The notes beneath the pieces were generated by a model. The model was not told the DNA's origin and made no database searches. It worked only from the letters and a program-made list of their open reading frames with translations. A DNA stretch of 41,816 nucleotides from Candidatus Fervidifonticultor quintus (GTDB lineage: Bacteria > Sysuimicrobiota > Sysuimicrobiia > Sysuimicrobiales > Humicultoraceae), in NCBI GenBank assembly GCA_031459535.1, contig JAVKIJ010000019.1, positions 1 through 41,816 on the forward strand, written 5' to 3'. This document shows positions 1 through 19,725 of the stretch, one piece after another (position 1 is the first letter of the stretch; each line of letters starts with the position of its first letter). Both the position numbers and the translations under genes were made by a program.

Positions 1-175
1 CTCCGCGCTTAGGAACTGCGCGCCGTGGTCGTGGATCAAGAGCGGGCACCCAGGCCGGCGTCCCTCCAACCCATCCAGCGCCTGCTGGATCGTCAGCGTG
101 ACCGCCTCCCCCCAGGGTCCGGTTCAGACTCCAGTGCACCAGAAAGCGGCTGTACCCATCCAGGACGTCCACCAG
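1..175 (-). pseudogene. Fragment of an IS3-family transposase orfB, inverted near-identical copy of 1063-1239
   Basis: Reverse complement matches 1063-1239 except for one substitution and a 2-bp deletion near position 110 (frameshift); runs off the left window edge. Confidence 0.9.
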
Positions 176-177
176 CC

Positions 178-204
178 TGTATTGCCCACGTCGAAGTGAG
201 ACAA
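178..204 (+). repeat. IS left inverted repeat
   Basis: TGTATTGCCCACGTCGAAGTGAGACAA; 22/27 identical to the reverse complement of 1602-1628. Confidence 0.9.
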
Positions 205-289
205 TTGCGCCCTGAAATTATGTGAGGGTCCAGCGCCTCCCCTGGCTCAGGGAAGGGGTACAATTCGATGAGCCGGGAGTTGTTGGTAG

Positions 290-592
290 ATGCCAAGCCC
301 ACAGCGGCGACGCTGGACGGCGGAGGAGAAGTTGCAAATCCTGGAAGAGGCGCGAGCAGCCGGGGGAAGCGTCAGCGAGGTGTGTCGCCGGCATCAGTTG
401 GCCCCCGGGCAGTTCTATCTGTGGGAACGCCAAGGCCGGCAGGGCGCCCTCCAGGCGTTGCGCGATGGCAAGCGGGGCCGCAAGCCCACCGATCCGGTGG
501 CGCGCTTACAGGCCGAGATCGACCGGCTACGGGTGACCGTCGCCGAGTTGAGCACCGAGAACCTGCAGCTGAAAAAGGGGCTTTGGCCGTAA
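290..592 (+). CDS. IS3-family transposase OrfA (HTH plus leucine zipper)
   Basis: RRWTAEEKLQIL...SVSEVCRRHQL...FYLW HTH_Tnp_1 pattern followed by the coiled coil LQAEIDRLRVTVAELSTENLQLKK. Confidence 0.92.
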   Translation: MPSPQRRRWTAEEKLQILEEARAAGGSVSEVCRRHQLAPGQFYLWERQGRQGALQALRDGKRGRKPTDPVARLQAEIDRLRVTVAELSTENLQLKKGLWP

Positions 593-597: not shown

Positions 598-1617
598 CAG
601 CGTCGCTACCTGCCGGAGGAGAAAGCGATGGCGCTCTAGACGGTCGAGGAGGCGCACCGACTCACGGGGCGCCCCATCCGGCAGATTCTCGAAGACCTGG
701 GGGTGGCGGCCGCCACCTACTACCGGTGGGAAGCCCGCGCGCAGACCGATGCGCTGGCGGATCGCTCAGTGCCGCCTCGTCGCCAGGCGCTCCCGCCGAC
801 GCCGGTGGAGGTGGACGCCGTCTGTGCGTTCGCGCTCCGCCATCCCACCATGGGGTATAAGCGGCTGGCGTGGCTGATGATCGACGAGGATGTGGCCTGT
901 CTACGGCCTTACCAGGTCTATCGGGTCCTTCTGGACGCGGACCTGCTGGCCCGGCGCCCGGTGGTGACGGAAGAGCTCAGGCAACCGGAAGTGCCCACCC
1001 AGCCGGATCAGGTCTGGCATATCGACCTCATGTACCTGTACGTCCGGCCCCGCTGGTACTACCTGGTGGACATCCTGGATGGGTACAGCCGCTTTCTGGT
1101 GCACTGGAGTCTGAACCGGACCCTGGGGGCGGAGGCGGTCACGCTGACGATCCAGCAGGCGCTGGATGGGTTGGAGGGACGCCGGCCTGGGTGCCCGCTC
1201 TTGATCCACGACCACGGCGCGCAGTTCCTAAGCGCGGAGTGGCGGCGTTTCGTGATCGGTGCCGGGCTGGTGGACGTCAAGACCCGGGTCGCTCACCCCG
1301 AGTCCAACGGGCGGCTGGAACGACTGCACCGCACGCATCGGGAAGAAGGGGTCGGCGGGTACGACCTGAGCGAGTACTACCAGGCTGTGGACGCCTTAAC
1401 CCGCTGGAGCCACTACTACAACTATCGGCGGCCTCACTCGGCTTTAGGCTACATGCCGCCCATTGAGTACTACCGCGGCGATCCCCAGGCTCGTTGGGGA
1501 GAGCGCCGGCGTAAGCTGGCGCAGGCCACCGAAGCACGCAGAGTGTACTGGAGGCAATCCGGCCATGGGAGACAGGACCCTCACATAATTGAGAGGGCGT
1601 TTTGTCTCACTTCGTGA
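577..1617 (+). pseudogene. IS3-family transposase OrfB with in-frame TAG at 637-639
   Basis: DDE motifs WHID, HDHGAQF, NGRLER. The frame reads RRYLPEEKAMAL*TVEEAHRLTGRPIRQILEDLGVAAATYYRW; the ORF track shows only 703-1617. Confidence 0.8.
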
Positions 1618-2045: not shown

Positions 2046-2983
2046 TCACTCCAGCCGCAGCCGTTCAATTGCCCCTGTCTTCCTGTGCGCCCGCTGGAGG
2101 TCTGCGCCGACCAGGGACGAGTACCGCAACGTGGTATTCAGGCTCTCGTGGCCGAGCAGCCGGCGCACCTCGTCCAACCCCGCGCCGTTTCGGAGCCAGG
2201 CCGTCGCCGCGAAGTGCCGGAGGGCGTGCGGGTGCAGGCGGCGGTGATCGGGTAGCCCGGCCTTCTGGCTGAGCCGGTGCATGATCTGCACGAGATGGCG
2301 GTACTTCAGCGGTCGGCCGGCGCGGTCACAGAACAGGAAGGCCTCCGGCGACGGCAGCGGGTGACGCGCGAGCCACGCCTTGAGCGCGCGCGTCGTGGTT
2401 GGACCAATGAACGTAACGCGATCCTTCCGGCCCTTGCCCGCTCGCACGAACAGCCCCGGGTCGGACGCACGCCAGTCTTCGACCAGGAGGCGGAGGACCT
2501 CACCGGCGCGCAAGCCAGCATCAGCGGGCACCAGGACGAGGGCACGAATCCTGATACCTTCGAGGGTTTCGGGACACGCCGCGAGGATGGCACGGAGGTC
2601 TTCTTCAGCCGGCACGTCGGGCAGCGTCTTCGGCGTGCGCATGGTGAAACCCCGCAGCGGGTTCTCGGGGAGAGCCCCGGTCTCGACGCACCAGCGGCAG
2701 AACGTCTTAAAGGTGCGGTACGCCTGGTGCTGGCGCGATGCCGAGAGGCCTTGCTCCTGCAGGCGCGCGAAGAACGCCCGAACGGTGCTGGGATTCGCCT
2801 CGGGGACGGCGGCGAAAAACCGCTCCAGCCACCAGCGGTACGTCTTCACCGTCGCGGACGTACACCCGGCCACCTGCTTTGTCAGCAGGAACGCCTCAAG
2901 GGCCTCGCGTAGGGGGTGAGCAGGGGCTTTTTCGGCGGATTCTGCGAGGGGTCGAACGGCGGAAACCCGCGTCCTGACTGGCT
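2046..2983 (-). CDS. Tyrosine recombinase/integrase; 5' end unresolved, frame open into the tRNA (first GTG at 2873)
   Basis: Catalytic motifs GLR, GKGRKDR, HALRH, LGH, TTLRY; SAM-like N-terminal region LREALEAFLLTKQVAGCTSATVKTYRWWL begins upstream of the GTG. Confidence 0.9.
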
Positions 2984-3263: not shown

Positions 3264-4115
3264 TCATCCCTGCCAGAGCAGCTTGTGCAGCGCCGAGTGA
3301 TCGAGATCGCCGTCGCCCTGGGCTACGAGTCGCTCGTACAGCGCAATCGTGCTGGCGAGGTGAGGCAGCCGCAAGCCGGCCGCTGTGGCGAGATCCTGGG
3401 CCATCCGCAAGTCCTTGAGCTGCGCGGCCGCCCGTCCACCCGGCACGTAGGCCCGCTCGATCATGCGCGTCCCGTGGATCTGGAGGATCTTCGAGTCGGC
3501 GAACCCACCCCGCAGTGCCTGCTGCACCAGGCGGGGGGCGATCCCGCATGCCTCGGCCAGGGCGAGGGCCTCGGCCACGGCCTCGATCGCAAGCCCCACG
3601 ATCACCTGGTTGATCACCTTCACCGCATGCCCCGCGCCGGGCCCGCCCACGTGGACCACGTTACTGCCCAGCGCCTCGAGCACCGGCCTCGCGCGGGCAA
3701 CGTCTTCCGGCGCCCCGCCGGCCATGATGGCCAGGGTGCCGCTGGCGGCGCCCTCCGGCCCGCCGGAAACCGGCGCGTCCGCCCATCCGATGCCGCGGGC
3801 CGCCAGCCGAGCGGCGTTGGCCCGCGACCGCGCCGGATCCGACGAGCCCATGTCGATCACCAGGTGCCCCGCTCGCAGGTGCGGCTCGAGGCGGTGCAGC
3901 ACGCCGTCGGTGGCGTCGGAGTCGCTGAGCATGAGCAGGCACGTCCGGCTCGCTGCCGCCTCTTCCAGCGACGCGCACAGCGGGATCCCCGCCGCCAGCT
4001 CCGGGCTCAGCGGTGAGCGGTTCCATCCCCGCACGTCGAACCCGGCCCGCATCAGCGTGAGGGCCATGGGCCGGCCCATGAGCCCCATTCCGATCACGCT
4101 GACAGTCGAGGGCAT
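3264..4115 (-). CDS. NAD(P)-dependent oxidoreductase, 3-hydroxyisobutyrate/tartronate semialdehyde reductase family
   Basis: IGMGLMGRPMA Rossmann motif, DAPVSGGPEGA, KVINQ; start taken at MPSTVSV (ATG 4115). Confidence 0.92.
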   Translation of the reverse strand: MPSTVSVIGMGLMGRPMALTLMRAGFDVRGWNRSPLSPELAAGIPLCASLEEAAASRTCLLMLSDSDATDGVLHRLEPHLRAGHLVIDMGSSDPARSRANAARLAARGIGWADAPVSGGPEGAASGTLAIMAGGAPEDVARARPVLEALGSNVVHVGGPGAGHAVKVINQVIVGLAIEAVAEALALAEACGIAPRLVQQALRGGFADSKILQIHGTRMIERAYVPGGRAAAQLKDLRMAQDLATAAGLRLPHLASTIALYERLVAQGDGDLDHSALHKLLWQG

Positions 4116-4135
4116 CCGGGGGGCGCGCCTGCGGG

Positions 4136-5392
4136 CTACCGGATGATCTTGCCGAGACGGCGGTTGAGGGCGTGGAGCGTGGCCTTCACCGCGCCCGCGC
4201 CCGGATCGGGGCCGACCAGACAGGCACCCGCATGCCGCTCCGGCGGCATCCCGCCGTTGCTGAGCAGGACCGTGACGATCACGAAGGTGTCTGGCGGCGA
4301 CTGCATCAGTCGCACCTGGTCCACCGCCGCTGTCCAACCCTCGGGCAGAACTTGATTTACGGCTGCGACCGTAGCCTCGGCCAGCAGCTTCATGGGGACG
4401 TTCCCCAGGCTCGAGCCGCGCGCTTCGCCTTGGACGCGGCGGTCACCGAGGCTCATGTGCACCGTGGCGGCGGCCGTCGGTCCCTCGACGGAGAATTCGA
4501 AGCGGTTCAGCCGAAGCCGCGGCTGCGCCCCGGCGGTCGCTTCGGCCAGCGGCGCGCGCACCCTGGCCTTCTCGATCTTCGTCTGGGTGGACTGCAGGCT
4601 GGCGATGGTGATCAGGTCGTCGATTGTTGCGCCAACATGCACATCGGGCCGCTCGGTGGTGCGCTTGCCGCCAGCGATCCCCAGCGAGGCCGACAGTGCC
4701 AGATCGGGACGCCCGCCCGGCACCTCGACCGAGGCGATGGCCTCCAGCACCCGGTGCCCCAGCGCCTCGGCCTGGTCGCGGGGACGCGTGGTCAGGATCG
4801 CAAACTCGTCGCCCCCGTAGCGGCAGAGCAGGTCCCTGGACGGATCCACCTGGGCCGCCAGCGCCTTCGCCACCGCCTTGATCAACCGGTCGCCCATCAC
4901 GTGACCGAGTTGCTTGTTGACCTGCCCGAAGTTGTCCAGGTCGAGGAAGAGGAGCGCGACCTCGTGGCCACTGCGCAGCATCTGCTCGGCACGCTCCCGC
5001 AGCGTGGTGGACCAGGGCAGGTCGGTCAGGGGGTCCACCGGGCGCCCCAGCGCTCCCAGCACGTCCTCGCGCGTCACGATGCCGACCAGGCGGTCGTGCT
5101 CGACCACGGGCAGGTGCGTGACGCGGCGGTCTTCCATGAGGACATAGGCTGCGGCCAGGGGCATGTCCGGCGGCGCCGTGACCACCTCACGCGGCATCAC
5201 CTCGGCCACCGGACGATAGGGAAGGGCGCGGATCAGGTCGCGGAGCGTGATGACGCCCACCAGCCGGCCGTCCTCGACTACCGGGAGCGCAGTGGCGTCG
5301 CTCTTCGACAGCAGCGCCACGGCGTCGGCGACGGTTTGAGCGGCGCCGATCGTGGGGACGTCGTGCCGCATGACCTGTTCGAGCGTCTTCAT
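4136..5392 (-). CDS. CBS-pair + GGDEF diguanylate cyclase-like protein with an extra C-terminal domain
   Basis: Two CBS motifs (LPVVEDGRLVGVIT, LPVVEHDRLVGIVT), DPLTDLP, FLDLDNF, GHVMGD, RYGGDEF. Confidence 0.9.
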   Translation of the reverse strand: MKTLEQVMRHDVPTIGAAQTVADAVALLSKSDATALPVVEDGRLVGVITLRDLIRALPYRPVAEVMPREVVTAPPDMPLAAAYVLMEDRRVTHLPVVEHDRLVGIVTREDVLGALGRPVDPLTDLPWSTTLRERAEQMLRSGHEVALLFLDLDNFGQVNKQLGHVMGDRLIKAVAKALAAQVDPSRDLLCRYGGDEFAILTTRPRDQAEALGHRVLEAIASVEVPGGRPDLALSASLGIAGGKRTTERPDVHVGATIDDLITIASLQSTQTKIEKARVRAPLAEATAGAQPRLRLNRFEFSVEGPTAAATVHMSLGDRRVQGEARGSSLGNVPMKLLAEATVAAVNQVLPEGWTAAVDQVRLMQSPPDTFVIVTVLLSNGGMPPERHAGACLVGPDPGAGAVKATLHALNRRLGKIIR

Positions 5393-6162: not shown

Positions 6163-6315
6163 ATGACCGGTACGTTGTTCGTGATCCTGCAAGCCGGCGC
6201 GAAACCCGAGCCCAGGGCCGAGTTGCAAACGGCTTTCATGTTCGTAATCCTGGTGGTGCTGGGAGCGATCTTCTTTCTCTGGTTGATCTACAGCCGCTTC
6301 AGTAGACCACCCTGA
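6163..6315 (+). CDS. Small single-pass membrane protein (50 aa), absent from the ORF track
   Basis: MTGTLFVILQAGAKPEPRAELQTAFMFVILVVLGAIFFLWLIYSRFSRPP; about 20 hydrophobic residues followed by basic residues; fills the gap between co-oriented genes. Confidence 0.6.
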   Translation: MTGTLFVILQAGAKPEPRAELQTAFMFVILVVLGAIFFLWLIYSRFSRPP

Positions 6316-6332: not shown

Positions 6333-7106
6333 ATGGGCGACCTCCGGATTGAGGGACTGACGATCGTACTTCGCGACGCCAGAGGCGCCCGGACCATTGT
6401 GCGGGACGTCTCCCTGCACGTCCCCGCCGGGACGTCGGTGGGGCTCGTGGGAGAGTCGGGCGCGGGCAAGTCCATGACGGCGTGCGCCGTGCTCCGGCTG
6501 CTCCCCACGGAGCAGGCGGTCATCGCGGCCGGTCGCATCGAATTCGCCGGTGTGGACCTGCTCTCGCTCCCCGAGGAACAGTTGCGCCCGTACCGCGGCG
6601 CGAAGATCGGCATGATCTTCCAGGAGCCCTCCAGCGCGCTCGATCCCCTGCTCACGGTCGGGGCGCAGGTGATGGAAGGCGTTGAGGCCCATTTCGGCAG
6701 ACGCGGGGCACGGGAGCGGGCGCTGGAAGCGCTGCGGCGGGTGGAGCTGCCGCCGGAGATCTTCGGGCGGTATCCCCACCAGCTCTCGGGCGGCCAGCGC
6801 CAGCGCGTGCTGATCGCCTCGGCCCTGGCGCCCGGCCCCAGCCTGCTGATCGCCGATGAGCCCACGTCCGGCCTGGATGTGACGGTCGGGGCCCAGATCA
6901 TGGATCTCCTCCACCGGTTGCAGCGCGAGCTGGGGATGTCGCTCCTGCTCATCACGCACAGCCTCGGGCTGGTGGCCCAGCGGACCGAGACCGTCTATGT
7001 CATGCGCCGCGGGGAGATCGTCGAGGCCGGCCCGACTTTGGACGTGTTCCGCGCGCCCAAACACCCCTACACGCAGGCACTGCTGCGCATGGCGCCCACC
7101 CTCTAG
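6333..7106 (+). CDS. Oligopeptide/dipeptide ABC transporter ATP-binding protein (OppD/DppD type)
   Basis: GESGAGKS, IFQEP, YPHQLSGGQRQR, IADEPT, ITH, HPYT. Confidence 0.93.
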   Translation: MGDLRIEGLTIVLRDARGARTIVRDVSLHVPAGTSVGLVGESGAGKSMTACAVLRLLPTEQAVIAAGRIEFAGVDLLSLPEEQLRPYRGAKIGMIFQEPSSALDPLLTVGAQVMEGVEAHFGRRGARERALEALRRVELPPEIFGRYPHQLSGGQRQRVLIASALAPGPSLLIADEPTSGLDVTVGAQIMDLLHRLQRELGMSLLLITHSLGLVAQRTETVYVMRRGEIVEAGPTLDVFRAPKHPYTQALLRMAPTL

Positions 7107-7193
7107 GGCGCATCCACCGACAGCCTGGCGCCGGTCGTTTCCTCCTCGAAAGTTGCCGCACTGTGCCATGGAATTGATGTAGAATTAGCAATT

Positions 7194-7226
7194 GTAAGAC
7201 AGACTTACGGGCGTGAGAGCCCTCAC
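7194..7226. promoter_or_regulatory. Candidate operator palindromes upstream of the peptide gene
   Basis: GTAAG-N5-CTTAC (7194-7208) and GTGAG-N4-CTCAC (7213-7226), just downstream of a TAGAAT -10-like box (7180-7185). Confidence 0.5.
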
Positions 7227-7240
7227 CCAAGGAGGATGCC

Positions 7241-7372
7241 ATGAAGAACGCGTTGCGGTTGCTCCTCGCTGCCCTTGCCGCCCTCTTGCTCGTGAGCGCG
7301 CTCCCCGGTCCCGTGCCTACAGGTCAGGCGCAGTGGCAACAGGCCGACCCTGACTGGCCGGGCGGCGGATAG
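7241..7372 (+). CDS. Small secreted peptide precursor (43 aa), candidate signalling propeptide
   Basis: AAGGAGG RBS at 7229-7235; MKNALRLLLAALAALLLVSALPGPVPTGQAQWQQADPDWPGGG has a Sec-type signal peptide and a short polar tail; below the ORF-track cutoff. Confidence 0.85.
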   Translation: MKNALRLLLAALAALLLVSALPGPVPTGQAQWQQADPDWPGGG

Positions 7373-7447
7373 TCGGCCCTAGGCTGACGGGAGAGGGGGA
7401 GGCCCGATGCGCCCCGGCGGTCGGAGAACACCGAGGGCTCTCACGGC

Positions 7448-7476
7448 TTGTCCTCCCGGCGCCGCGGTGCTACAGT
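7448..7476 (+). promoter_or_regulatory. Sigma70-type promoter of the HTH-TPR regulator, probably leaderless
   Basis: TTGTCC-N17-TACAGT with extended -10 TG (7468-7469); ATG 9 nt after the -10 box, no SD. Confidence 0.65.
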
Positions 7477-7485
7477 TGTCTTACT

Positions 7486-8799
7486 ATGGCTAAACCCTCT
7501 CCCAAAGTCGAGCGGGCATCGCGACCCGAGTGGTTGGTACAGTTCGGCCGGCGACTGAGGCAGGCGCGAGGATACGCCGGCATCACCCAGGAGCAGCTGG
7601 CCGGCGGGGACTGCAACAAGAGCTTCATCAGCCTACTGGAGAGCGGGCGGTCGTACCCGTCGGTCGAGACGGTAGCTGCGCTGGCCCGCCGGGCGGGCAC
7701 CTCGGTGGCCTCGCTGCTCCTCGACCCCGAGGCGCTCCGGTGGGAGACGGCTTACAACCTGTTGCACCTCGCCTGGCATCTGGATCCTGTGGAGCGCGGG
7801 GCCGAAGCCCTGCGGCTCGCCGAGATGGCCGAGGCCGTGGTGCCCGGCCACCCTGCAGAGCTCAGTGCCCGCGCGATCCTGGTGCGGGCTCGCATCGCGG
7901 TAATGACAGACCGCCTGGTTGAAGGGGCCCAGTTGGCCGATCAGGCGGCGGCGGTCGCGCGCCGCCACCAGTTGCCCGGCGCGCTGGGCAGGGCCCTGGT
8001 CCTGCGAGGCATCGCCGCCGAGCGGCGGGGAGAGTACAGAGTGGCGGTGACCGTCCTCGGGAAGGCGCTGGAGATCATGCGGCAGGCGCGGTCCGCGCAC
8101 ACCGAGGACGAGGTGTGGGCCTGCCTGTCCCTGGGCGCTGCGTGGGGCCGCACCGGTCAGTTGGCCCGCGCGCGGCGGAGTTACCGGCGTGCGCTCGAGC
8201 TCGCCACGCGCCTGGGACTTCAGCGAATGCGCGGACGCGCGCTCACCGGACTCGCCCTGGCCGAATGGGCGTCGAGGCGCCCCGACCAGGCAGTGGACCT
8301 GCTCGAGCAGGCCTACGACGCCTTCGAACAGATCGAGGACCTGGCCGAGATGAGCCGCGTGCTCAACAACCTGGGGCTGCTGCGGCGCGAACAGGGGCTC
8401 TACGCCGAGGCGCTGGCAGTGCTCCAACGGGCCCTTCGCCTCAGAGACCGGCAGCCTGACGTGCGGGGCCGCAGCGCCACCCTCGACGAGATCGCACAGG
8501 TGTACCTGGCGATGTCCCGGTGGAACGAAGCTGCTCGCATCGCACGCCGGGCGCTGAAGGACGCCAGCGCGTCCGGCGACCAGTCGCGCCAGGCCGCGGC
8601 GCAGGTGACACTGGCCCGGGCGCTGCGCGCCCAGGGTCGCTGGCAGGAGGCCGTGGAACTGCTACAGGTTGCGGTGCCGACGCTCTCGCGCCTGGGGATG
8701 CACGCGCAGGCCGTCTCTGCCTCGACCGAGCTGAATCTGTTGCTGACCTCGCTGCGCGCGGGGCCGGTTGAGGAGCACGAGGCGCACAAAGGAGCATGA
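7486..8799 (+). CDS. XRE/Cro-type HTH + tetratricopeptide-repeat transcriptional regulator (RRNPP-like architecture)
   Basis: FGRRLRQAR...ITQEQLAG...SFISLLESGRSYPS HTH; repeated TPR motifs (LSLGAAW, LTGLALAEW, LNNLGLL, LDEIAQVY); 437 aa. Confidence 0.9.
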   Translation: MAKPSPKVERASRPEWLVQFGRRLRQARGYAGITQEQLAGGDCNKSFISLLESGRSYPSVETVAALARRAGTSVASLLLDPEALRWETAYNLLHLAWHLDPVERGAEALRLAEMAEAVVPGHPAELSARAILVRARIAVMTDRLVEGAQLADQAAAVARRHQLPGALGRALVLRGIAAERRGEYRVAVTVLGKALEIMRQARSAHTEDEVWACLSLGAAWGRTGQLARARRSYRRALELATRLGLQRMRGRALTGLALAEWASRRPDQAVDLLEQAYDAFEQIEDLAEMSRVLNNLGLLRREQGLYAEALAVLQRALRLRDRQPDVRGRSATLDEIAQVYLAMSRWNEAARIARRALKDASASGDQSRQAAAQVTLARALRAQGRWQEAVELLQVAVPTLSRLGMHAQAVSASTELNLLLTSLRAGPVEEHEAHKGA

Positions 8800-9269
8800 C
8801 CGCCGTGGGAAGCCCGCTGCACAAGGAAGTGATCGGGGAACCTGCGGGCGACGCCATCTCGCAGGACGAACGCCGCAGGCTCATATGCCGGATGCCGTCG
8901 GGATGGGCAGTGCTTCATGACTGGCAGTACCTGCCCGGCTGTTCGCTGCTGGTGCCCGAACCGGCCGTTCGTGATTTTCACACGCTGTCGCTCGATCAGC
9001 GCCTGGTCTTCCTGCGGGACATGGCGCTGCTCGGCGAGGCCGTGCTGGCGGTGACCGGGGCCGCGACGATCAACTATTCGATCCTCGATGTCGCCCAGCG
9101 TCTGCAGGCCTGCGTCTGTCCCCGGTACGACTGGGAGCCTCGGGATAGGCGGTGGGGCCCATTTGACTGCTACGACATGCGCGAGGGGCAGAGGTTCGAC
9201 CCGGTGCTCCACGCGCGCCTCGCGACGACTCTGGCAAGTTACCTGGAGCGGCTGCTGCTGAAGTTCTGA
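8796..9269 (+). CDS. HIT-like protein with a degenerate histidine triad
   Basis: MPSGWAVL..WQYLPGCSLL, FLRDMALLGEAV, INYSIL, PRYDWEP resemble a HIT subfamily; ATGA overlap with the regulator stop codon. Confidence 0.7.
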   Translation: MTAVGSPLHKEVIGEPAGDAISQDERRRLICRMPSGWAVLHDWQYLPGCSLLVPEPAVRDFHTLSLDQRLVFLRDMALLGEAVLAVTGAATINYSILDVAQRLQACVCPRYDWEPRDRRWGPFDCYDMREGQRFDPVLHARLATTLASYLERLLLKF

Positions 9270-18864: not shown

Positions 18865-19725
18865 GTGGGGGTCGAAGAAAGGCACGTCAGGCTGAAGCCG
18901 CTCCCGTCTGACATCGGGGGACGGCTCGAGACGGTCGCCTCGGTCCTCCTCCAGCACCCGGTGCGCTTGGGCTACCTCTTTGGGTCAGCCGCCCGTGACC
19001 CCGCGAGGGCCAGCGATGTGGACATCGCCGTGCTGCCAGAGCAGGGGTTCTCCTACACGGCGCTGTACGCCGATCTGTCAGCGGCCCTCGGCACAGACCG
19101 TCTCGACCTCGCCGACCTGAGGTTCGCGACCCCCCTGTTGCAGTGGCAGGTCGTCACCGGCGGTCGCCGCTTGGTGGCTACCTCCGACCTCGAAGCCGCT
19201 GTGTACGAGCAGGCCGCTCGGAGCCGCTACCGCGATCACAGGGTGTGGTGGACGGGCCGGGCCGCCACCCCGGGAGGAGCGCTCGCCATGACCATGCGCC
19301 GGGACCTGATTCTACAATCCTTGGCTGAATTGGAGCGCGTCGCCCAGGAACTCGAGAAGTACCGATCAGTCACCGCCGATGCGTTGGCCAGGGATCTCAG
19401 CCTGCGGTGGACGGTGGAGCGCGGACTGCTGGCCGGGCTCGGAATTGTCTTTCGGGTCGCCGAGCACATCCTGGCGGCGCACTTCCACCGGGCCCCCGAC
19501 ACCTACGAGGGACTGCTAACTGACCTTCGGGATTGCGGGGTCCTCCCCGAAGAGCTCTACGCCCGCCTGCGGGGGTCTGGGGGGTTCCGCAACGTCCTGG
19601 TCCACGAGTACGTCACGGTGGACCTCAAAGAAATTGAGAATTCACTGCACGGGGCGCCGTTCACCTTCCGCGCCTTCGGCGAGGCGGTCTCGGGATGGCT
19701 TGCGCGCCTCGCTGATGCTCCCTGA
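18865..19725 (+). CDS. Fused MNT nucleotidyltransferase + HEPN (DUF86/HepT-like) protein, type VII TA-like
   Basis: YLFGSAAR...SDVDIAV and DLADL (MNT); VERGL and GFRNVLVHEY (HEPN RX4H-X-Y). Confidence 0.88.
   Translation: MGVEERHVRLKPLPSDIGGRLETVASVLLQHPVRLGYLFGSAARDPARASDVDIAVLPEQGFSYTALYADLSAALGTDRLDLADLRFATPLLQWQVVTGGRRLVATSDLEAAVYEQAARSRYRDHRVWWTGRAATPGGALAMTMRRDLILQSLAELERVAQELEKYRSVTADALARDLSLRWTVERGLLAGLGIVFRVAEHILAAHFHRAPDTYEGLLTDLRDCGVLPEELYARLRGSGGFRNVLVHEYVTVDLKEIENSLHGAPFTFRAFGEAVSGWLARLADAP

Follow-up and report, generated by a model that had tools for sequence, protein, structure and literature searches.

The stretch of DNA analysed here (the window) is 41,816 nucleotides (nt) of contig JAVKIJ010000019.1 from Candidatus Fervidifonticultor quintus, with a G+C content of 68%. 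It carries two adjacent genes, one coding for a peptide of 43 amino acids (aa) and the other for a 437-aa regulator in which an XRE-type helix-turn-helix (HTH) domain is joined to tetratricopeptide repeats (TPRs). On balance, we favour the interpretation that this pair is a two-gene peptide signalling cassette of RRNPP-like type, with density-dependent feedback. The pair recurs at related loci, the small open reading frame (ORF) has a coding signature, its product combines signal-peptide-like features with a hypervariable tail, the regulator models as a TPR superhelix, and operator-like sites and a conserved stem surround the peptide gene.

The peptide gene stops at 7372 and the receptor gene begins with an ATG at 7486, leaving 113 bp between them, and both are on the same strand. 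A preliminary description, made from the DNA letters and their ORFs, had noted the small ORF, the sequence of its peptide, the AAGGAGG ahead of it, the length of the gap, and the 437-aa HTH-TPR neighbour, and every one of these features was reproduced here. The features of the pair, in window coordinates, are as follows.

7229-7235, forward strand: Shine-Dalgarno sequence AAGGAGG of the peptide gene, 5 nt ahead of the ATG.
7241-7372, forward strand: propeptide ORF, 43 aa (conserved upstream homologues, coding signature, peptide profile).
7241-7303, forward strand: basic N-terminus and apolar stretch of the propeptide, residues 1-21.
7304-7369, forward strand: acidic, Gly/Pro-rich tail of the propeptide.
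7343-7369, forward strand: ADPDWPGGG, the region proposed to be the mature signal (shared by the window and its nearest relative, L001; aligns with the repeat unit of L022).
7486-8799, forward strand: receptor gene, 437 aa, XRE-type HTH and TPR superhelix (Pfam, AlphaFold2, Foldseek).
7540-7710, forward strand: XRE-type HTH (HTH_31), receptor residues 19-75 (Pfam).
Receptor residues ~81-436, forward strand: all-helical TPR superhelix (Pfam TPR_12 at 1.4e-26, TPR_MalT and many further TPR families; AlphaFold2).

An alignment of 36 receptors (A1), used to scan a single genome for each species, yielded 44 receptor loci, designated here by L numbers. Immediately upstream of the receptor gene, the window and 17 of the 44 loci (L001-L010, L013, L016, L020-L023, and L025) have a homologous ORF of 42-48 aa whose N-terminus is basic and apolar; two of the 27 negatives (L017 and L034) have less than 140 bp upstream and cannot be judged. 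Where the ORF is present it is on the same strand as the receptor gene and 96-134 bp from its start, across receptors that are 35-88% identical. That so many related loci (17 of 44) have the small ORF in this place makes the pairing of ORF and receptor, judged by these genomes, more than chance. A profile built from the 18 peptides was run on 8,778 stop-to-stop six-frame segments from the 44 loci and the window (414 kb); it matches its 18 training ORFs alone (E <= 1.2e-9; the runner-up has E = 0.018), and in these 414 kb the peptide is confined to the position beside the receptor. The same profile matches 28 clusters of 42-44 aa in a collection of 5.8 billion proteins, a few of which are named 'hypothetical protein', and a Pfam search with the 43-aa peptide gave no match.

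The substitution pattern of the small ORF is that of a coding sequence: among five independent close pairs there are 104 differences, distributed 24, 21 and 59 over codon positions 1, 2 and 3, and the gaps that a DNA alignment of 12 loci shows within the coding part have lengths divisible by three. Our own scan found a Shine-Dalgarno sequence of GGAGG or longer ahead of 14 of the 18 upstream ORFs (those of L002-L010, L013, L016, L020, L025, and the window) and none in L021, L022 and L023; L001 has the same AAGGAGG as the window. The preliminary description had staked its reading on the ORF being conserved and translated, and on homologous receptors having an adjacent secreted ORF. The third-position excess, the kept length and the 28 database clusters speak for the former, and indicate a real, conserved gene that is translated as far as the sequence tells; with regard to the latter, a secreted-looking ORF with a variable tail stands at 17 of the 44 loci.

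The anatomy of the propeptide was compared among 40 distinct peptides from 46 records (18 genomic and 28 from the database). All 40 have K or R among the first eight residues, an uninterrupted stretch of 15-22 apolar or small residues (median 16; ended by Pro in 36 of the 40), and a net acidic tail. Gly makes up 40% of the last ten residues, Pro 15%, and Asp 12%, and there are 28 distinct C-terminal 8-mers. The ADPDWPGGG end is common to the window and L001 although their signal-peptide parts differ. In the propeptide of L022 (4724-4870, forward strand; Candidatus Geohabitans tengchongensis) the unit APELPGEN occurs twice in tandem with three residues between the copies, which suggests a precursor with two copies of the signal. 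This unit aligns with DPDWPGGG of the window in the pattern x-P-acidic-hydrophobic-P-G-x-x, suggesting that the released signal is about 8-9 residues long; the earlier guess that the last 8-9 residues, (A)DPDWPGGG, are the signal gains support from this alignment. Tandem duplication of the pheromone has been described for RRNPPA systems (PMC11343458). Two of the metagenome-assembled genomes (MAGs) contain two pairs with different tails: JBGQGY (L003 and L007) and LDXQ (L020 and L025).

The receptor has 106 relatives at E <= 0.001 in the protein collection, with identities of 33-89% (about 75 of them 40-89% identical), and those with a named source are mostly labelled Armatimonadota. An AlphaFold2 model computed from alignment A1 (mean predicted local distance difference test [pLDDT] 92.7; predicted template modelling score 0.83) contains 23 helices, of which five form the HTH and the remaining ~18 a continuous superhelix, and the predicted fold is that of a peptide-binding TPR superhelix. 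A Foldseek search of the PDB places the TPR domain of LGN/Pins at the top (E = 2e-11; template modelling [TM] score by target 0.66-0.81 and by query 0.55-0.63), then engineered consensus TPR proteins, and then RRNPP complexes, with Rap and PlcR at ranks 28-50; the RRNPP matches are RapJ-PhrC (4gyo), RapF (3ulq), phi3T Rap with its pheromone (8rtc), pLS20 Rap (6t3h), and PlcR-PapR (2qfc). In a profile search of PDB sequences, generic TPR proteins score 9e-25 versus 1.2e-9 for RapF. The earlier reading of the receptor as RRNPP-like is in line with the TPR superhelix and its Rap-Phr and PlcR-PapR matches, but by sequence the receptor is assigned to no named RRNPP family, and generic peptide-binding TPR proteins are structurally closer to it than Rap and PlcR. 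Among 16 receptors with a peptide, the mean pairwise identity is 0.71 for the HTH and 0.48 for the TPR domain, which is the pattern expected for a conserved DNA target and a diverging ligand.

Likenesses to several known systems can be drawn, each with its differences. NprR-NprX and PlcR-PapR of the Bacillus cereus group have a cytoplasmic XRE-type HTH-TPR receptor of 250-500 aa and an adjacent propeptide gene whose product has a Sec-type N-terminus and an active C-terminal end, as would be the case here by analogy; NprR has about nine TPRs, and its propeptide is of ~43 aa. Unlike these systems, the window's pair belongs to the phylum Candidatus Sysuimicrobiota, has its peptide gene upstream of the receptor gene (the usual RRNPP order is downstream), has acidic, Gly/Pro-rich tails ending in GG and a stem that brackets the peptide ORF, and is matched by no RRNPP-specific sequence model. 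Rap-Phr systems (Bacillus, phages, and plasmids) provide the best bacterial structural matches (4gyo, 3ulq, 8rtc, and 6t3h) and share the secreted propeptide with a C-terminal pheromone (presumed here), the occurrence of several paralogous pairs in one genome, and peptide-less receptors. Rap, however, has no HTH and acts on response regulators, and the TM score by query is here 0.47-0.50 with a root-mean-square deviation of 10-13 A.

The arbitrium system AimR-AimP of Bacillus phages also pairs an HTH-TPR receptor with a propeptide; AimP is a propeptide of ~43 aa whose mature C-terminal peptide varies and keeps a Gly-rich end, as the variable tails here keep a conserved GG. AimR-AimP differs in being phage-borne and in having the receptor gene first, whereas no phage genes accompany the pair in the loci examined for context. 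The eukaryotic LGN/Pins TPR proteins, which are the best fold matches, are eight-repeat superhelices that hold extended peptides in their inner groove, but they are scaffolds without a DNA-binding domain, and the likeness is one of fold alone, at 17-18% identity. By analogy the cassette would work like an RRNPP system; membership in a named subfamily is not claimed.

Four of the five features that make up the RRNPP_detector signature (PMC10075063) are present. The receptor, at 437 aa, lies within the length range of ~250-500 aa; its TPRs are of peptide-binding type, as judged from TPR_12 at 1.4e-26, the superhelix model, and fold matches to peptide-bound TPRs; the propeptide, at 43 aa in the window and 42-48 aa in the homologues, lies within 10-100 aa; and the two genes are directly adjacent, with the same layout in 17 of 44 loci. 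The fifth feature is a SignalP call, in place of which we used heuristics for K/R residues and an apolar stretch. Occurrence in Bacillota, which is the described range of RRNPP systems and not a mechanistic requirement, is not seen here: the loci are Sysuimicrobiota (CSP1-3), or are labelled Armatimonadota or Chloroflexota.

TPR residues 80-437 were co-folded with peptide residues 14-43, both as alignments, along with three controls. The interface scores (ipSAE) are 0.26, 0.52, and 0.45 (median 0.45) as compared with 0.02 for the best control, which is graded as weak support. Of 157 solved complexes, 116 attain the mark used, as do 2 of 215 mismatched pairs; at scores of 0.60 or lower it is attained by just 18 of the 157 complexes and by both mismatches. 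By the tool's own account, unless the guess was already a likely one, such a pass is wrong more often than not. The runs have at least 61% of their contacts in common, the pLDDT of the partner is at least 40 and below 50, and no interface is reported. For the idea that the C-terminal peptide is the receptor's ligand this amounts to an in-silico pass of weak grade, which nudges the odds of peptide-TPR binding and proves nothing.

A further set of conserved features lies around the peptide ORF and at the receptor start.

7181-7200, forward strand: operator-like block O1, AGAATTAGCAATTGTAAGAC, 41-60 nt 5' of the peptide ATG; its 13-nt core is at 7185-7197.
7212-7224, forward strand: 5' arm of a long-range stem, CGTGAGAGCCCTC, 13 nt just 5' of the ribosome-binding site, 100% complementary to 7433-7445.
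7389-7402, forward strand: GGGAGAGGGGGAGG, a conserved box rich in purines that follows the peptide stop.
7433-7445, forward strand: 3' arm of the long-range stem, GAGGGCTCTCACG (covariation, RNAalifold, inverted repeat).
7448-7476, forward strand: promoter-like element ahead of the receptor gene, TTGTCC and, after a 17-nt spacer, TGcTACAGT (extended -10) (cross-locus conservation).
7481-7493, reverse strand: operator-like site O2, with the same 13-nt core, overlapping the receptor start codon.

The O1 block is kept in all 12 of the clade-i loci that have upstream sequence, and a weight matrix of its core finds sites of 12.7-23 bits at positions -86 to -98 in all five clade-ii loci, which were outside the training set; four of these are on the opposite strand. 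The window has one more match to the core, in inverted orientation, at the start of the receptor gene (two matches occur in 0 of 100 shuffles), and the two copies form a 17-nt inverted repeat of 88% (7185-7201 with 7477-7493). This second site, O2, lies at offset -5 of the receptor ATG and scores 18.4 bits in the window, against an expected best of -4.7 over ~106 positions; it is found at the same offset and strand, with 12.6-18.4 bits, in the window, L001, L002, L006, L007, L009, L013, and the peptide-less L015. O2 is partly constrained by Met-Ala-Lys coding. Because the site occurs in either orientation at both genes, we regard O1 and O2 as a candidate operator of the conserved HTH. A second, weaker O1-like block is seen ~30 bp 5' of the main one in L002 (4632-4651; 17.2 bits) and L009 (2650-2669, forward strand; 19.2 bits).

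The stem formed by 7212-7224 and 7433-7445 brackets the ribosome-binding site and the entire peptide ORF. A 12-pair helix (columns 34-45 with 298-309 of alignment A2) has 90.6% of its cells paired over 12 loci, a value reached in 0 of 500 shuffles and compared with 29-62% for slid controls; both sides have changed in five of the 12 pairs, with some U-G cells, and RNAalifold recovers the core of the stem independently. RNA duplex energies computed between the entire 5' and 3' flanks were given no weight, as GC-rich sequence yields low values anyway. In clade ii a stem with another sequence occupies the corresponding positions. The stem may serve as an RNA clamp for a ~230-nt peptide transcript, with stability, processing, or insulation from the receptor promoter as possible roles; we know of no counterpart in described RRNPP loci. 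The intergenic regions of clade-i loci also contain a GGGGAGGG-like box.

In the 12-locus alignment the TG-TA---T pattern and the TTG of the promoter-like element are invariant or nearly so. Between the end of this pattern and the receptor ATG there are 9-10 nt and no Shine-Dalgarno sequence, which suggests that the receptor gene has its own promoter and that its mRNA is leaderless or nearly so.

A quick maximum-likelihood tree (IQ-TREE) was built for 40 receptors, with the short rows L010, L025, L035, L040, and L042 left out. The window and L001 fall inside a well-supported clade of 19 rows, 12 of them with a peptide; a second clade of four rows has the peptide in all, and a third, of 15 rows, in none. 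Presence of the peptide requires at least four changes on this tree, compared with a mean of 12.8 for shuffled assignments, and a number as low was obtained in 0 of 500 shuffles. Within 700 bp downstream of 22 peptide-less receptors there is no small ORF with a Shine-Dalgarno sequence and signal-peptide look, and the peptide profile has no match at the peptide-less loci; these paralogues resemble 'solo' receptors.

The named loci (Candidatus Fervidifonticultor, Geohabitans, and CSP1-3) belong to Candidatus Sysuimicrobiota, of the kingdom Bacillati, and others are labelled Armatimonadota. The earlier remark that the cassette resides in a high-GC organism agrees with the base composition of the window, and the loci of its relatives point to Sysuimicrobiota, a phylum other than Bacillota. 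The nearest relative, L001 (JAILZB010000269.1; receptor 88% and upstream ATPase 91% identical), is labelled Chloroflexota, yet it lies among Sysuimicrobiota in the tree; the label is probably a binning or labelling conflict.

We propose that the cassette would work as follows. The 43-aa product would be a propeptide whose basic, apolar N-terminus leads to Sec export, and its acidic, Gly/Pro-rich C-terminal end—here about ADPDWPGGG—would be freed by cleavage outside the cell. The freed tail would be taken up again and would bind the concave face of the TPR domain in the neighbouring HTH regulator. Binding would change the regulator's occupancy of O1, at the peptide promoter, and O2, at its own start codon, creating a density-dependent feedback loop whose direction, and whose regulon, we infer rather than observe. 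Solo receptors would listen without speaking.

A number of observations weigh against this proposal. In the receptor, the TM scores by query in Foldseek are higher for LGN/Pins (0.55-0.63) than for Rap and PlcR (0.43-0.50), and none of the 20 Pfam and 13 NCBIfam families that match it is RRNPP-specific. A partial Mantel test of tail against TPR, given the HTH, has r = 0.30 (p = 0.004), but the control with the signal-peptide part has r = 0.43 (p = 0.0002), so that the co-variation of the tail is not specific; of the co-varying C-terminus that had been predicted, the variable tail at adjacent ORFs was found and a tail-specific co-variation with the receptor was not. The tail is of low complexity, with a GG end in 37 of 40 peptides that could reflect some constraint other than receptor recognition, and export is judged from composition heuristics, with a Pro often right after the likely cleavage region. 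Peptide-less relatives make up seven of the 19 rows in the window's clade (L017 among them, with too short an upstream region) and all 15 of the third clade, and nhmmer finds no DNA relic of the cassette at peptide-less receptors. There is no Opp system linked to the pair. A generic sigma-70 promoter and terminator scan of 7050-7560 returned no promoters and no terminators; the receptor's promoter-like element was missed because just 8 of 12 consensus positions match. The two papers on the phylum do not contain the words quorum, diderm, monoderm, or outer membrane.

Some of these observations would be accommodated if the peptide were a regulated product and not a ligand: a secreted or membrane-anchored effector, bacteriocin-like or a surface peptide, controlled via O1, with the TPR domain sensing something else or serving to oligomerise. 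In favour of this, an operator-like site lies at the peptide promoter, the peptide-less paralogues show that this type of receptor can work without a neighbouring peptide, and the low-complexity tail with its almost invariable GG end and the weak docking support fit as well. We nevertheless consider this explanation unlikely, for no modification, immunity or export genes accompany the pair in the loci examined for context, divergence is far more rapid in the TPR domain than in the HTH, and the strict one-to-one adjacency, the several divergent pairs within a genome and the tandem tail unit are typical of signal-receptor pairs.

A second alternative is that the ORF is a cis-acting leader of the secretion-monitor or arrest type, as are SecM, MifM and VemP, with its translation and membrane targeting remodelling the mRNA structure and tuning the regulator. 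The signal-like N-terminal segment, the C-terminus rich in Pro, Gly and Asp, and the covarying long-range stem that brackets the ORF would all suit such a leader. Both arms of the stem are outside the ORF, however, and the downstream gene encodes a cytoplasmic HTH-TPR regulator, not a component of secretion or membrane insertion, and appears to have its own promoter-like element 9-10 nt from its ATG; moreover, arrest motifs are conserved, whereas the C-terminal tail is hypervariable (28 distinct 8-mers in 40 peptides). We give this explanation very little weight. That the ORF is untranslated, and that a structured RNA or the DNA sites alone are what is conserved, is scarcely credible: strong conserved non-coding features (the stem and O1/O2) do surround it, and long open frames arise easily in high-GC DNA, with many overlapping ORFs listed in the window, but the third-position excess (59 of 104), the coding gaps in multiples of three, the strong and correctly spaced Shine-Dalgarno sequence, the physicochemical features kept in 40 of 40 peptides despite sequence variation, and the separation by the protein profile of 18 ORFs (E <= 1.2e-9) from the rest (E >= 0.018) all argue otherwise. 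The signalling cassette is the interpretation that we retain.

The genes around the pair were compared by tblastn of seven window neighbour proteins against the 44 loci, and by annotating 42 neighbouring ORFs from 13 peptide-carrying loci. Synteny, as judged by these comparisons, is limited to the peptide-receptor pair. An ABC ATPase (6333-7106), the 50-aa ORF preceding it, and the 157-aa ORF that follows the receptor were matched in L001 alone. An OppD-type ATPase immediately upstream had been offered in the preliminary description as support for the module; it is shared only with the near-identical L001 and is not syntenic with the pair, and we rejected it as a part of the module. This ATPase (forward strand, 257 aa) is an orphan of OppD/DppD/NikD-like type that includes the first 27 positions of oligo_HPY, with all NCBIfam matches below cut-off, and no permease or binding protein adjoins it. 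The hydrophobic 50-aa ORF ahead of it (6163-6315, forward strand) is 88% identical in L001. Two importer loci of Opp/Dpp type (SBP_bac_5, OppC_N) are present in the window, at a greater distance from the pair.

A conserved neighbour as the regulated target was likewise rejected: no gene is common to all pairs, and contexts vary by sub-clade. The neighbours are HisRS-MFS-TrpR in L003, L005, and L008, PAS kinases with Memo and CBS-GGDEF in L002 and L009, and a response regulator with a hybrid kinase in L013; in the second clade the upstream side has MGMT and a divergently oriented gamma-glutamyltranspeptidase, and the downstream side an aldehyde dehydrogenase. No phage genes, and no modification, immunity or export genes, accompany the pair in the loci examined for context. 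In L007 a subtilase (Peptidase_S8; 3315-4562, forward strand) lies directly 5' of the peptide gene, and the divergent gamma-glutamyltranspeptidase is 5' of it in L021 (2521-4662), L023 (2542-4329), and L025 (2488-4278), all on the reverse strand; either enzyme could be a processing enzyme or a mere neighbour. A CBS-GGDEF diguanylate-cyclase-like gene, 61% identical, lies less than ~2 kb from the pair in the window (4136-5392, reverse strand), L002 (7870-9129, forward strand), and L009 (6323-7582, forward strand), with sides and strands differing.

Directly downstream of the receptor, the ATG of the 157-aa ORF (8796-9269, forward strand) overlaps the receptor stop (ATGA). It has no Pfam or NCBIfam match, and in a protein atlas it falls among hydrolases of the HIT family (feature score 0.93; structural TM score 0.81). 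An rve-type integrase (703-1617, forward strand) and a phage-integrase-family recombinase (2046-2873, reverse strand) lie ~4-6 kb 5' of the pair, a hint of a mobile or rearranged region. The segment 9450-12248 (forward strand) contains NikR followed by CbiM-PDGLE, CbiQ and an ABC ATPase, that is, a nickel/cobalt uptake cluster of energy-coupling factor (ECF) type with its regulator. At 18865-19725 (forward strand), one 286-aa ORF has matches to a Pol-beta-type nucleotidyltransferase as well as to a HepT-like RNase, which are usually the two halves of a toxin-antitoxin pair; this may reflect a fusion, or else be an artefact of the way in which the ORF was chosen.

Peptide signalling through intracellular TPR receptors is treated as a hallmark of Bacillota, their phages and their plasmids. 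The largest RRNPP survey covers 7,974 Firmicutes genomes and 47,982 viral genomes and nothing else (PMC10075063), and the paper on RRNPPA evolution (PMC9765709) speaks of Firmicutes. We found no report of RRNPP systems in Armatimonadota, in Actinomycetota (at the level of titles and abstracts), in MAGs, or in any non-Bacillota phylum, in a literature that included few subscription journals and leaves absence unproven; the two papers on the phylum do not mention quorum sensing. We put at about even the chances that RRNPP-type sensing extends beyond Bacillota as an independent or anciently shared family of Sysuimicrobiota, with dozens of 'pherotypes', orthogonal pairs within a genome, eavesdropping solo receptors, dual-operator feedback, and an RNA clamp.

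The finding bears on the question of whether such systems are ancient in Bacillati or convergent. If confirmed, it would carry RRNPP-type logic into a lineage from hot springs and subsurface soils that is deep-branching and uncultivated, and would provide compact, orthogonal peptide-receptor-operator parts, probably from thermophiles. It would also offer a testable handle on the social behaviour of organisms that are known just from MAGs and enrichments.

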